Source: an uncultured Gemmatimonadales bacterium
GTDB taxonomy: Bacteria; Gemmatimonadota; Gemmatimonadetes; Longimicrobiales; Longimicrobiaceae
NCBI GenBank assembly: GCA_963716255.1
Contig: OY970303.1
Span: 736,001 to 800,000, forward strand
Length of the DNA stretch: 64,000 nucleotides
Reading direction: 5' to 3'
In this document: piece by piece, positions 12,648 to 60,604 of the stretch
How the letters are laid out: each line of letters starts with the position of its first letter
How positions within the stretch are numbered: position 1 is the stretch's first letter
Notes under the pieces: generated by a model
The model's database searches: none
Told to the model about the DNA's origin: nothing
What the model saw: only the letters and a program-made list of their open reading frames with translations
Program-made: the position numbers and the translations under genes

Positions 12648-12797
12648 GGGCGTGCCCCCGGCTGGCGCCGGGGTCGGGCTTCGGCTCCGTAACGCAGCAA
12701 ACAACGCTGCGTAACGGAGTCGAGCCCGCGCAAACAGCCGCGCGGTCTCGCCCCTTCGGGCCGGAATCCCTCACGCGGGGCTCGCGCTGGCGTCCGC
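12648..12797 (+). repeat. Family-1 structured element, copy B
   Basis: Same conserved framework as copy A with different but still paired stems. Confidence 0.95.
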
Positions 12798-13050
12798 TGG
12801 GGCCCCTTCCCCCCGGCCCCCTCCCCCAATTCTGGGGGAGGGGGAGCACGACGACGACAGGCTGTTGCAGTTCCCGGGATCTGCGCAGGGAGGCCGGGGG
12901 TGGGCGGTGCGTTTGTTCGAAGCCAGCGTGATCTCGCCCTCGCTCCAGCGGCGGGCGAGTGCTCTGCGAGTCCCTTCGGGTGTCGCACCGCTGGAGGAGC
13001 CTCCCCCGGCCGACCACAAGCACCGGAGCCCGCCGGAACACACCGCTGTT

Positions 13051-13109
13051 GGCCCCCTCTCCCGGAATTGGGAGAGGGTGGCGAGCCTCAAGCGAGCCGG
13101 GTGAGGGCC
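13051..13109 (+). repeat. REP/CIR-like ~59-bp double-hairpin repeat
   Basis: Near-identical to 2216-2274. Confidence 0.85.
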
Positions 13110-13700: not shown

Positions 13701-13829
13701 GCGTGAGGGATTCCGGCCCGAAGGGGCGAGACCCGCGGGCAGTTTCGCGGGGCTCGACTCCGTTGCAGACGGTCGTTTCGTCTGCTACGGAGCCGAAGCC
13801 CGACCCCGGCGCCCGCCGGGGGCACGCCC
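13701..13829 (-). repeat. Family-1 structured element, copy D (lacks the distal tail)
   Basis: Reverse complement of the family-1 consensus, beginning about 20 bp after the dnaG stop. Confidence 0.95.
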
Positions 13830-18358: not shown

Positions 18359-18506
18359 GGGCGTGCCCCCGCTGGCGCGGGGTCGGGCTTCGGCTCCGTA
18401 GGCGAGCAAACAACGCTCGCCAACGGAGTCGAGCCCCGGCAAACTGCCGCCGGGTCTCGCCCCTTCGGGCCGAAATCCCTCACGCGGGGCTCGCGCTGGC
18501 GTCCGC
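18359..18506 (+). repeat. Family-1 structured element, copy C
   Basis: Consensus match; the first hairpin has one base pair deleted from both strands. Confidence 0.95.
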
Positions 18507-22363: not shown

Positions 22364-22400
22364 CGGCAGGGATCTAGGGAACAGGGAACAGCCTGCAAAA

Positions 22401-22445
22401 GCAAAGGCGCCCCCGCCGGGAGATCCCGGGGGAGGCGCCTTTTGC
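22401..22445. terminator. Probable bidirectional rho-independent terminator
   Basis: GCAAAGGCGCC...GGCGCCTTTTGC hairpin between convergent genes. Confidence 0.65.
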
Positions 22446-22522
22446 AGTTCCGCAGTACCCACATCCGTCGGTTCGGAGGGAGACAGCCGGGCCGTTTCGG
22501 CTGGCTCACTCCGGCGCGGCCC
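22442..22522 (-). repeat. Family-2 element, single-module copy
   Basis: Minus strand GAGCC-AGCCG-AAACGGCC-CGGCT-GTCTCCCTCCG plus the GGGTACTGCGGAACTGCAA tail shared with other family-2 copies. Confidence 0.8.
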
Positions 22523-25423: not shown

Positions 25424-26584
25424 CTACAGCACCGCCCCGATCCGCCGCGCCGCCTCGCGCAGCCGGTCCTCGCCCGTGGTGAGCGCGATGCGGAAGAACC
25501 CCTCGCCCCCCGCGCCCAGCGACGCGCCCGGCGTCACCGCAACGCCCTGCTCCAGCAGGAGCCGCCGCGCCCAGGCCTCCGATCCGGTCCCCTCCGGGAG
25601 CGGCACCCACAGGTACATGGTCGCCCGCGGCGCCTCCACCCGCAGCCCCGCCGCGCGCAGCCCCTCCACCGCCGCGTCCCGCCGCCGGCGAAAAATCTCC
25701 AGGTTGCCGGGGAGCCACTGCCCGTGCGAGCGGAGCGCCGCCGCCGCCGCGTGCTGCACGAACAGCGGGAGCCCCGTGTCCGCGAAGGTCTTCACGCGCT
25801 GCAGGGCGGCCACCAGCTCCGGGCGTCCCGCCGCCCACCCCACGCGCCACCCGGTCATGTTGTACGTCTTGGAGAGCGAGTGGAACTCGATGGCCACGTC
25901 GCGCGCGCCGGGGATCTCCAGGATGGAGGGCGGCACGTAGCCGTCGAAGGCCACCTCCGAGTACGCGTTGTCGTACGCCAGCACCACGTCGTGCTCGCGG
26001 CAGAACGCCACCGCGTCCGCCAGGTACTCGCGCGGCGCGATCGCGGCGGTGGGGTTGTTGGGGTAGTTGAGGTACAGGATGCGGGCCCGCCGCGCCACCT
26101 CCGCGGGGATGTCCTCCAGCGGCACCAGGAAGCGGTTTTCCGGCCGCAGCGGCACCACGTACGGCTCCCCGCCCGCCAGCACGGTCCCGCCCAGGTACGC
26201 CTGGTAGCCGGGGTCGGGGACGATGGTCACGTCGCCCGGGTCCAGGAAGGCGAAGGGGAGGTGGAAGATCCCCTCCTTGGAGCCCAGCAGGGGCAGCACC
26301 TCGCGGCTGCCGTCCACCATCACGCCGAAGCGCCGGTCCATGAAGCGGACGATCTCCTCGCGGAGGTCGGCCAGCCCGATCTGGAAGCCGTAGCGCGAGT
26401 TGACCGGGTCCAGCGCCGCCGCGCGGAGCGCCTCCACCGCGTCCGGCGGCGGGGCCAGGTCGGCGTCGCCGGCCCCCAGGTCGATCACGTCCACGCCCTT
26501 TGCCTTGAGGTCGCGCTTGATCTGGGGGACGTCCTGGAGCGGGTACGGCGGCAGGGTGTTCAGCCGTTTGCAGGTATCGGGCAT
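25424..26584 (-). CDS. Class I/II aminotransferase, LL-diaminopimelate aminotransferase-like
   Basis: LLGSKEG, LNYPNNPT, DNAYSE and HSLSKTYNMTGWRVG. Confidence 0.9.
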   Translation of the reverse strand: MPDTCKRLNTLPPYPLQDVPQIKRDLKAKGVDVIDLGAGDADLAPPPDAVEALRAAALDPVNSRYGFQIGLADLREEIVRFMDRRFGVMVDGSREVLPLLGSKEGIFHLPFAFLDPGDVTIVPDPGYQAYLGGTVLAGGEPYVVPLRPENRFLVPLEDIPAEVARRARILYLNYPNNPTAAIAPREYLADAVAFCREHDVVLAYDNAYSEVAFDGYVPPSILEIPGARDVAIEFHSLSKTYNMTGWRVGWAAGRPELVAALQRVKTFADTGLPLFVQHAAAAALRSHGQWLPGNLEIFRRRRDAAVEGLRAAGLRVEAPRATMYLWVPLPEGTGSEAWARRLLLEQGVAVTPGASLGAGGEGFFRIALTTGEDRLREAARRIGAVL

Positions 26585-26634: not shown

Positions 26635-26768
26635 GGGGCCGCTCCGGAACCAGGCCAAACTGCCGGCCTGTTTCCTACGCGGGTCGCGAAGCCAGCCGAA
26701 ACTGCCCGGCTGTCTCCGCTCCGGCTGCGGGAGCCCCCCGGAAACTGCCCCGGGGGTCTCCCTCCGCA
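26635..26768 (+). repeat. Family-2 element, three hairpin modules
   Basis: GGGGCCGCTCCG followed by three GARCC-stem-AAACTGCC-stem'-GTYTCC modules. Confidence 0.92.
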
Positions 26769-26926
26769 CAAGGGGTGGGGAACGGCGGGGACGGCAAACT
26801 GCACGGCCGTCCACCCCCGCTGTCACCTTTCACGCCGCCGGCGACCCGGGCCACCGGAACGACGAAGCCCTCCCCCGGTGGCGGAGGAGGGCCGTATTTG
26901 CAGGCTGTTCCCTGTTCCCTGCCGTT

Positions 26927-27427
26927 TCAGGCCGGCGTGGGCTCCGGTGGGCCCTGGCGCGGCTCGCCCGCGAGGCCCAGGCGCAGGGCGAGCAGGATCC
27001 CGCCCACGGTGATGGCGACGTCGGCGACGTTGAAGACGAAGGGGAAGAAGCGCACCAGGATGAAGTCCGTGACCGCGCCGTTGAGGAGGCGGTCGCCCAG
27101 GTTGCCCAGGGCCCCGGCGACCACCAGCGCGGCGGCGAAGTGCAGCAGCCGGTCGTGGGTGGTGCGGATCAGGTGCACGCACACCACGATCCCCACGATG
27201 CCGGCGAGGGTGAGCGCCAGCATGCGCAGCCAGCTCTCGCCGCCGCCGGCGAACATGCTGAAGGCCACGCCCGTGTTGCGGCGGTGGGTGAAGACCACCC
27301 AGCCGTCCACCACCGTGTGCCAGCCGTCCACCGGGAGGCGGTTCTGCACCCAGGCCTTGCTGACCCAGTCGGCGGCGGTGACGGCGGCCACCAGGGTGGC
27401 CAGGGCGCGGTTGCGGGTCACGGTCAT
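26927..27427 (-). CDS. lspA: Lipoprotein signal peptidase II
   Basis: DWVSK, NTGVAFS, GALGNLGDR, VTDFI and FNVAD. Confidence 0.95.
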   Translation of the reverse strand: MTVTRNRALATLVAAVTAADWVSKAWVQNRLPVDGWHTVVDGWVVFTHRRNTGVAFSMFAGGGESWLRMLALTLAGIVGIVVCVHLIRTTHDRLLHFAAALVVAGALGNLGDRLLNGAVTDFILVRFFPFVFNVADVAITVGGILLALRLGLAGEPRQGPPEPTPA

Positions 27428-28220: not shown

Positions 28221-28351
28221 TGCGGAGGGAGACCCGCCGGCTGTTTGGCGGGGCTCCCGCAGCCGGAGCGGAGACAGCGGGGCCGTTTCCGCTGGCTCCG
28301 CGACCCGCGCAGGAGACGGACGGCAGTATCGTCCGGCTCCGGAGCGGCCCC
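28221..28351 (-). repeat. Family-2 element, three hairpin modules
   Basis: Minus-strand loops ATACTGC, AAACGGCC and AAACAGCC; starts about 20 bp after the DinG stop. Confidence 0.92.
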
Positions 28352-28372
28352 AGAGCAAGATCTATCGAAAGC

Positions 28373-33383: not shown

Positions 33384-33513
33384 GGGGCCGCTCCGGAGCC
33401 GGACGATACTGCCGTCCGTCTCCTGCGCGGGCTGCGGGAGCCAGCCGAAACTGCCCGGCTGTCTCCCTTCGCACGGAGGGAACCCCGCCAAACAACCGGC
33501 GGGTTTCCCTCCG
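33384..33513 (+). repeat. Family-2 element, three hairpin modules
   Basis: Loops ATACTGC, AAACTGCC and AAACAACC; starts about 10 bp after the stop at 33373. Confidence 0.92.
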
Positions 33514-33647
33514 TTCACGTATTTGGGTTCGGCTCCGTGTCGGCCGCTGGATCCCGCTACCGGATCGGGCGCTGGAGCAGCCTATGATTCTACGACACGG
33601 GGCGGGGCCGGCGAGGCCGGCCCTGCCCGCGGTCCTGCTCCGCAACT

Positions 33648-42423: not shown

Positions 42424-42471
42424 GCGAGGACGCCCACGCAAGCCCCGCGTGAGGGATTCCGGCCCGAAGGG
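42424..42471 (-). repeat. Family-1 element, 3' fragment (copy H)
   Basis: GCCCCGCGTGAGGGATTCCGGCCCGAAGGG plus a degenerate tail, abutting the IS5 remnant. Confidence 0.8.
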
Positions 42472-45915: not shown

Positions 45916-46046
45916 GCGTGAGGGATTTCGGCCCGAAGGGGCGAGACCCCGCGGGCAGTTTCGCGGGGGCTCGACTCCGTTGCAGACGGTAGTATCGTTT
46001 GCTACGGAGCCGAAGCCCGACCCCGGCGCCAGCCGGGGACACGCCC
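45916..46046 (-). repeat. Family-1 structured element, copy E (lacks the distal tail)
   Basis: Reverse complement of the consensus, beginning about 24 bp after the clpB stop. Confidence 0.95.
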
Positions 46047-52648: not shown

Positions 52649-52802
52649 GCGGACCCCAGCGAGACCCCCGCGTGAGGGATTTCGGCCCGAAGGGGCGAGA
52701 CCCGGCGGGGCCGTTTCCGCCGGGGCTCGACTCCGTTAGCGAGCGTTGTTTGCTCGCTTACGGAGCCGAAGCCCGACCCCGGCGCCAGCCGGGGGCACGC
52801 CC
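52649..52802 (-). repeat. Family-1 structured element, copy F
   Basis: Reverse complement of the consensus; overlaps the 3' end of the 52758-53969 CDS. Confidence 0.95.
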
Positions 52803-60339: not shown

Positions 60340-60547
60340 GGGCGTGCCCCCGGCTGGCGCCGGGGTCGGGCTTCGGCTCCGTAAGGCAGCAAACAACGCT
60401 GCCTAACGGAGGTGAGGTTTGGCGGAAACAGCCCCGCCGGGTCTCGCCCCTTCGGGCCGAAATCCCTCACGCGACAGGCCCCCTCCCCCGCAAGCGGGAG
60501 AGGGGGAGAACTTCATCGGGGACAACGTGTTTCGCGCTGGCGTCCGC
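60340..60547 (+). repeat. Family-1 element copy G, interrupted by a REP hairpin
   Basis: Consensus 60340-60473, then ~58 bp containing CCCTCCCCCGCAAGCGGGAGAGGG, then the displaced tail TCGCGCTGGCGTCCGC at 60532-60547. Confidence 0.9.
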
Positions 60548-60549
60548 GG

Positions 60550-60604
60550 GGCCCCACCCGGCTCGCTTGAGGCTCGCCACCCTCCCCCAATTCTGGGGGA
60601 GGGC
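60550..60604 (-). repeat. REP/CIR-like double-hairpin repeat
   Basis: Reverse complement of the 2216-2274 type. Confidence 0.8.

Follow-up and report, generated by a model that had tools for sequence, protein, structure and literature searches.

Dispersed hairpin repeats of a Longimicrobiaceae chromosome and their apparent relatives in phages and plasmids

The repeats in the window and in the genome

The element at positions 26635-26768 (plus strand) of the window, the stretch of 64,000 nucleotides that was analysed, lies between an aminotransferase class I/II gene (25424-26584, minus strand; PF00155) and the signal peptidase II gene (26927-27427, minus strand; PF01252), both of which are ordinary host genes. 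It is a DNA element comprised of a GGGGCCGCTCCG head and three modules (26647-26674, 26689-26716 and 26731-26760), of which the second opens with AAGCC and is a one-letter variant. The predicted folding strand is the minus strand. A degenerate 3' tail of AACNGC units follows (26769-26812, plus strand), with a locus-specific part that is common to relatives. The site is occupied also in three related genomes (G001, G008 and G005), where the number or the content of the modules differs. The first-pass annotation had assigned four elements to this family, family 2. Two others of the four have the head and three modules, one at 33384-33515 (plus strand) and one at 28221-28352 (minus strand), just 3' of the stop codon of a DinG-like helicase gene, where all three modules differ in G001 and G008. 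The fourth (22442-22520, minus strand), after the yqeY gene, is a one-module remnant without the head.

Family 1 has seven full copies in the window. Those at 1983-2115 and 18359-18485 (both plus strand) score 26.1 and 30.4 bits with a model of viral elements described below, and those at 12648-12776 (plus), 13701-13829 (minus), 45916-46046 (minus), 52670-52802 (minus) and 60340-60472 (plus; arm C degenerate) are recognised by both pattern and model. The third hairpin of family 1, called arm C (2057-2088 in the first copy), is the same module as in family 2, as had been noticed. Fifteen strict modules were found in the window, to which the 26689 variant and a degenerate module near 60419 are added, in agreement with the earlier estimate of about 17 in 64 kb, and all seven of the related hairpins with an AWACNAC loop are present. 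Heptamer tandem repeats (CTGTTCC type and GCACTTTC type) and AACNGC units crowd gene ends in the window (26900-26926, 22380-22400) and genome-wide, and their copy number differs among relatives. At 42428-42471 the 3' end of a family-1 element is joined to a truncated IS-like fragment.

The source genome (G000; 8.42 Mb, 73% GC) contains 1,271 strict modules, against none in an equally long order-5 Markov sequence, and a genome-wide pattern search found perfect stems in 1,054 of them. The proposed covariation of the base is evident, with G..C in 1,189 modules, A..T in 79 and only 3 discordant. When the mismatch was left free, the C.T that had been described as fixed was kept in 1,305 of 1,408 hairpins (per strand, genome-wide), 1,170 of which carry the AWACNRC(C) loop. 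The stem arms pair as had been claimed; the stems are not free, being drawn from about ten alleles per position. In some modules a nested hairpin replaces the usual loop (e.g. G000:C1:4228516 and 639707).

Placed against our own gene calls for G000, a soil bacterium, 1,056 of the 1,060 elements (817 of family 1, 215 of family 2 and 28 unclassified; about one copy per 8 kb of chromosome) are intergenic and four overlap called genes. The head sits a median of 25-26 nt downstream of a co-oriented stop codon. Where the two flanking genes are co-directional, family 1 is sense in 255 cases and antisense in 225, and family 2 in 84 and 49, respectively. No clear replichore bias of family 1 was seen in G000. 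The repeat is real and, being of high copy number, intergenic and found after stop codons, REP/BIME-like in placement.

Among 41 related genomes the module pattern occurs in 13: G000, all eight genus-mates, genomes of three further genera in the family and, with an unpaired match due to chance, one more. Across the phylum the head pattern of family 1 has more than two matches in only 2 of 151 genomes, a survey that G096 enters as denominator only. The titled matches listed with family 1 are mostly from Longimicrobium, Longimicrobiaceae and other Gemmatimonadota assemblies, with a few from Pseudomonas, Rhizobacter and Burkholderia. In contigs from sequencing data the relatives retain the element ends, and one carries a one-module form.

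Fold and strand

On the strand opposite to that read in the first-pass annotation, referred to as the GNA strand, the C.T mismatch becomes A.G, the TNC loops become GNA triloops and the linkers of family 2 become GNA/GNA internal loops. Triloops of the type C(GNA)G have an unusual stability as DNA. The triloop register exceeds the UNCG tetraloop register by 793:1 in family 1 and by 145:4 in the copies of mobile elements; random DNA favours the triloop by 84:15, because the motif itself builds in one pair. The DNA fold is more stable on the GNA strand in 79/80 and 80/80 copies. RNA parameters prefer the same strand too (79/80 and 62/80 copies), which counts against a reading restricted to single-stranded DNA; it is the triloop register and the strand orientation in mobile elements that favour ssDNA over RNA.

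The mismatch helix is ancient, and the A-rich loop is mostly lineage-specific. The GYNGTWT loop is matched by 6 of 110 mobile-element copies, and in two of them clearly as a hairpin loop. The proposal of one recognition unit with a fixed loop and a fixed mismatch holds for the mismatch helix, which phage and plasmid copies keep, but not for the loop, since these copies mostly bear others.

Homologues in phages and plasmids

Core patterns of the element gave 55 and 68 viral loci, including microviruses and dsDNA phages in which genes for terminase, integrase or ArdA are close by. Covariation is seen in an alignment of 40 viral multi-arm elements (98.3% paired, eight pairs changed on both sides, 0/500 shuffles); the set was gathered by patterns derived from family 1 and its invariant columns are partly circular, whereas columns 14-72, 29-59, 30-58 and 36-52 are not fixed by the search patterns. 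A model built from these elements puts all seven full family-1 copies of the window first, at 22-30 bits with the next match at 11.5, and matches them on the GNA strand. The same model has no match in family 2, for which only two chance matches were obtained in viral contigs and none in plasmids. The module-with-loop pattern matched viral contigs 56 times, none of the matches being paired.

A distant search of plasmids with family 1 returned 137 records, 124 of them conjugative, and a phage-type query returned 339, of which 291 are conjugative, both figures being uncorrected for the proportion of conjugative plasmids in the collection. The matches are unannotated repeats, two to four per plasmid, which stand between leading-region operons and are collinear with family 1 including the base of the module; their loops are mostly other ones. 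A phage or a conjugative plasmid carries one to four copies. These comparisons show that family 1 is, as judged from sequence, homologous to the covarying multi-arm element of phages and plasmid leading regions. The module is likely to be one arm of a Flavo-1-like multi-arm element and family 2 is read as a lineage-specific tandem array derived from that arm. The two scaffolds, held to be unrelated in the first-pass annotation, are probably related.

Flavo-1 was first described as an RNA of Bacteroidetes (PMC2864571, accessible part) and is listed by Rfam as an sRNA (RF01705). Its termini GCGTKAGGGAT...AGCCCGACC (PMC2864571, same part) match those of family 1, with which it has also in common a 3-bp helix with an A.G mismatch, GNA/GNA loops, a high copy number in some chromosomes and the lack of a known function. 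It differs in having one inner arm with two GNA/GNA loops, whereas family 1 has three inner arms; each arm of family 2 carries one such loop, and family 2 has no Flavo-1 termini. The RF01705 gathering score is passed by 4 of 20 viral loci found with family-1-derived patterns. G000 has no RF01705 match (150 of 200 candidates scored), and for this reason family 1 is regarded as Flavo-1-like and not as a member, in spite of the matching termini. The window has no RF01705 match at or above the gathering threshold, and Rfam gave no relevant match in the window, the plasmid loci or locus L068. What is new here is that family 1, read on the opposite strand, matches at the level of nucleotide sequence the multi-arm element of phages and plasmids and shares the Flavo-1 termini. 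The openly accessible literature, which does not extend to the original CUP paper, yielded no description of these families or of a link of Flavo-1 to phages or plasmids.

In the Bacteroidota-type prophage contigs L269, L284, L302, L313, L316, L318, L321, L324, L328 and L329 a Flavo-1-type element comes right after a divergent terminase large-subunit gene; the conserved gene in front of the element in Bacteroidota prophages, considered as a mobiliser, is thus a terminase gene. The multi-arm form precedes the terminase small subunit in L200, L201 and L203.

The CUP repeats of IncN2 plasmids (PMC5371602, accessible part) offer a further parallel, in that four copies of the element, all in one orientation, lie between ssb and stbABC of an IncN-type plasmid. 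CUPs are described as ArdK-controlled promoters in that part of the paper; the element may correspond to no more than one end of a CUP, the coordinates of which could not be matched to those of the element.

Orientation in plasmids and microviruses

Genes of the leading region are transcribed from the transferred strand (10.1101/2023.02.15.528439, accessible part). In five of the six plasmids in which the orientation of the relaxase is readable, the GNA strand is antisense to the relaxase gene, as expected for the transferred strand (L065, L333, L432, L434 and L435); L433 disagrees, the GNA strand being sense there, and both L433 and L435 are short partial matches. The orientation is unreadable in L007, L008, L334 and L431. 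In most of these plasmids the GNA strand is the template strand of the neighbouring genes.

In one-arm microviruses (25 IMG/VR loci, which hold 17 distinct elements that are related and non-independent) the element is sense to the genes in 10 loci and antisense in 15. The GNA strand is nevertheless the T-rich strand at fourfold sites in 25/25 of these loci and in 4/4 GenBank records. The T-rich strand is the packaged strand in phiX174, and T-richness may mark the packaged strand in these phages too. The multi-arm microviruses, whose element is the type closest to family 1, are represented by 13 rows, some from one contig, and in these the folding strand is always coding. Their skews are +0.89 in one row, about +0.1 in four, -0.09 to -0.25 in six and -0.56 and -0.83 in two; only one of the 13 is strongly T-rich and two are strongly A-rich, which counts against priming on single-stranded DNA. 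The many viral copies in dsDNA phages beside terminase or integrase genes count against it as well. The element is absent by pattern search from the isolated phage phiHBP1, and its core is absent by eye from the PAS (F-G) region of phiX174, where GNA mini-hairpins are present. In the Bacteroidota-type microviruses L266, L286, L304 and L450-L452 the coding strand is A-rich and the element runs antisense to the genes. These phages may package the antisense strand.

The element resembles the ssi, PAS and Frpo signals (PMC5778457, PMC9865509 and 10.1101/2023.02.15.528439, accessible parts) in being intergenic in microviruses, after the capsid gene in KT264808. Likewise, it is found in plasmid leading regions on the predicted transferred strand and has GNA mini-hairpins. 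It differs from these signals in its amplification to about 1,000 chromosomal copies and in that the F-G region of phiX174 has no counterpart of its core. The role of hairpins in non-coliphage microviruses cannot be certified, according to the accessible part of PMC9865509; second-strand priming in these phages is the question on which the element bears.

Exchange of modules at orthologous sites

G000 was compared with 40 regions of G001, where gene ends are 95.3% identical. Family 2 occupies the matching site in 31 of 32 cases; the remaining case, the 26635 locus, has a one-module form there, so that the site is occupied in 32/32, a figure biased towards presence by the choice of 39 of the regions for their family-2 matches. 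The strings of modules differ in 29 of the 31 pairs, part of these differences arising from failed parsing. Three modules were parsed in 20 pairs, and of their 60 positions 27 are identical, four are one letter apart and 29 differ by two or more; stems are perfect in both genomes for 19 of 33 changed module pairs. Identity falls to 68% in the 15 nt that precede the head (41% when shuffled), and local divergence therefore exceeds 5%. Within G000, 163 three-module copies form 101 triples from about ten stems per position. Positions 1 and 3 are near independence (48/500), whereas positions 2 and 3 are still linked (0/500).

Exchange of whole arms between copies is the simplest reading of these swaps. 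Such exchange of entire modules accounts for most of the stem covariation, and covarying repeat copies should therefore not automatically be taken as a sign of selection at each locus. Family 1 is present in G000 and missing in G001 at 5 of 17 sites, at two of them by internal deletion. No empty site with a target duplication was seen in the comparison of the two genomes.

Mutational footprint

At fourfold sites over the final 100 bp of upstream genes with the same orientation, C amounts to 0.36 and 0.34 against 0.45, and T to 0.058 and 0.056 against 0.029. With the skew corrected for codon box and leading/lagging position, the GNA strand has a G deficit within 200 bp on the 3' side (-0.08 and -0.11 in the first 100 bp). 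At 0.8-2.5 kb to either side of the element this strand has an excess of G, amounting to +0.03 to +0.08 and gone by 7 kb. The excess is seen whichever the family, the replichore orientation or the gene strand; with orientation made random it is under 0.01. Around 258 isolated elements it is +0.037 to +0.064 at 0.8-2.5 kb, whereas 476 element-free gene ends have +0.004 to +0.010 at that distance and +0.02 to +0.07 within 800 bp on one side. Each family lies in the middle of a strand-specific footprint that extends about 4 kb to either side and is absent from element-free controls. At about one copy per 8 kb the footprint reaches a large part of the chromosome, and synonymous sites over kilobases would thus bear the oriented mark of a dispersed repeat. 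Far from the element, the skew looks like T depletion on the strand of the first-pass annotation rather than extra C-to-T change on the GNA strand. The footprint fits one-strand exposure and strand-biased repair alike and could in principle predate insertion.

Insertion sequences and candidate partner proteins

An IS481-like element (215 bits against a cut-off of 224) sits at the GTCT of a module in 8/8 copies; its relatives are at the module in G006 and G004 and not in G018 and G030. An IS4 element lies over the module loop with a 10-11-bp duplication in 4/4 copies. This targeting shows that proteins read the module, yet both elements parasitise it. Loci L438, L439, L442 and L443 hold these specialised elements, and the IS481-like element has also short forms of about 300 bp.

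The REP-type HUH nuclease suggested earlier as partner was not found. PF01797 (RAYT) is absent from G000 and present in one of nine genus genomes, although the module is in nine of nine, and modules are near only 1 of 25 PF01797 loci. That locus is L337 in G005, where about 250 bp separate an IS200-type tnpA from a family-2 element, a vicinity read as chance. No RAYT gene flanked by the repeats was found among these. Families of the RAYT, GIY-YIG, DUF559 and four-helix-bundle types were rejected as partners, being absent or not flanked by the module; k-mer clustering for partner families found IS families only, and no transposase was recognised by eye among the oppositely flanked genes listed. 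A likeness to domain V of group II introns was dropped as superficial.

Interpretation

The homology of family 1, the shared mismatch helix, the exchange of modules, the IS targeting and the oriented footprint, all demonstrated above, have to be accommodated by any account of the repeats. The account preferred here, to which an even chance is given, is that the element is a signal in single-stranded DNA of the Flavo-1 kind, at which a host protein starts local synthesis of the complementary strand. The strand opposite to that first read would fold when single-stranded, with GNA triloops, GNA/GNA loops and A.G pairs. In phages and plasmids the folded element would serve as a priming signal of the ssi/sso type, and a host protein (a PriA-type restart protein, a primase and RNA polymerase are candidates) would bind it and begin complementary synthesis. 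Gap formation and resynthesis would recur around the chromosomal copies and leave the footprint, with other copies acting as repair templates, which would swap the modules. The earlier interpretation survives in part: the idea that the recognition unit is folded ssDNA is supported by the triloop register, the strand orientation in phages and plasmids, the two module-specific transposases and the strand-specific footprint, while CsrB-style titration is not supported, a REP-type HUH partner was not found and the scaffolds are probably related.

The main rival, which we consider rather unlikely, is a selfish non-autonomous ssDNA element of the REP/REPIN/BIME kind, nicked and copied by an as yet undiscovered nuclease, the footprint and the swaps being by-products of nicking and repair and the phage and plasmid copies passengers or co-opted. 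With REP/BIME and REPIN-RAYT systems (PMC3733652, accessible part) the element shares its nature as an imperfect hairpin of high copy number between genes and past stop codons, its targeting by specialised IS and its occurrence in mosaics, which here involve other hairpin repeats, and the placement of the elements here, with 1,056 of 1,060 intergenic and the head 25-26 nt past a co-oriented stop, together with the 5 of 17 family-1 sites vacant in G001 and the neighbouring repeat family that flanks a DUF559 gene, agrees with such an origin. Against it stand the distribution of PF01797, the scarcity of modules at its loci and the want of a recognisable transposase among the oppositely flanked genes listed. 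There is also no clean empty site or duplication, two of the five losses are internal deletions, family 2 keeps its site in 32/32, and phages of 4-7 kb have single conserved copies. From REPIN-RAYT, as portrayed in the accessible part of that source, the element differs further in its multi-branched 130-nt fold and in its single-copy homologues in phages and plasmids. At the module flanks no unpaired GTAG or CGTC foot tag was seen, and GTAG occurs in the paired arm-B stem of some copies.

An RNA-level element of the 3' UTR that binds or titrates an RNA-binding protein in the manner of CsrB, which is how Flavo-1 was first proposed, appears improbable. Its sense orientation close to stop codons, the sense bias of family 2 (84 vs 49) and the Rfam entry as sRNA would suit such a role; family 1, in contrast, faces either way (255 vs 225), the homologues have opposite orientations to genes in plasmids and microviruses, and the triloop register and a DNA footprint independent of gene strand speak for DNA. 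Flavo-1 matches themselves are indistinctly sense or antisense to transcripts (PMC9723704, accessible part). Nor was the CsrB-type GGA in the hairpin loops of one transcribed sRNA found; the loops are AWACNRC(C), in about 1,000 dispersed copies in both orientations.

That the modules or flanking genes are shuffled by a tyrosine recombinase at attC-like sites is very improbable: module exchange, the repeated copies between plasmid leading-region operons and the recombination between CUP repeats reported in IncN2 (PMC5371602, accessible part) point that way, but the flanking chromosomal genes are ordinary housekeeping genes, syntenic in relatives, without cassette-like arrays of single ORFs, and the mismatch is symmetric instead of an extrahelical base.

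If complementary-strand synthesis at a folded single-strand signal is taken further, Flavo-1 would be no RNA; it would stand as the prototype of a single-strand origin that microviruses, conjugative plasmids and prophages use across phyla. Some Bacteroidota microviruses would package the antisense strand, marked by the element, and in the Longimicrobiaceae it would have been made into about 1,000 strand-specific resynthesis sites on the chromosome, rebuilt from interchangeable arms, that bias mutation over much of the genome. This extension is tentative and, as a whole, possible rather than probable. The work links an orphan Rfam motif to the phases in which phage and plasmid DNA is single-stranded, and makes that motif open to a direct assay.

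A neighbouring hairpin repeat

Another abundant hairpin repeat (2208-2274, 13043-13109 and 60549-60603 in the window) flanks, as inverted copies, a DUF559 gene at G000:C1:125100-125650; the gene and the repeat are likely a cognate nuclease pair. An IS5-family element (L440; G000:C1:835800-837500) was rejected as a module-targeting IS: it is near elements in 9/9 cases, but its target is the DUF559-type repeat, into which it is inserted in eight of nine full-length copies. The skew around 26 isolated copies of this repeat is different and antisymmetric.
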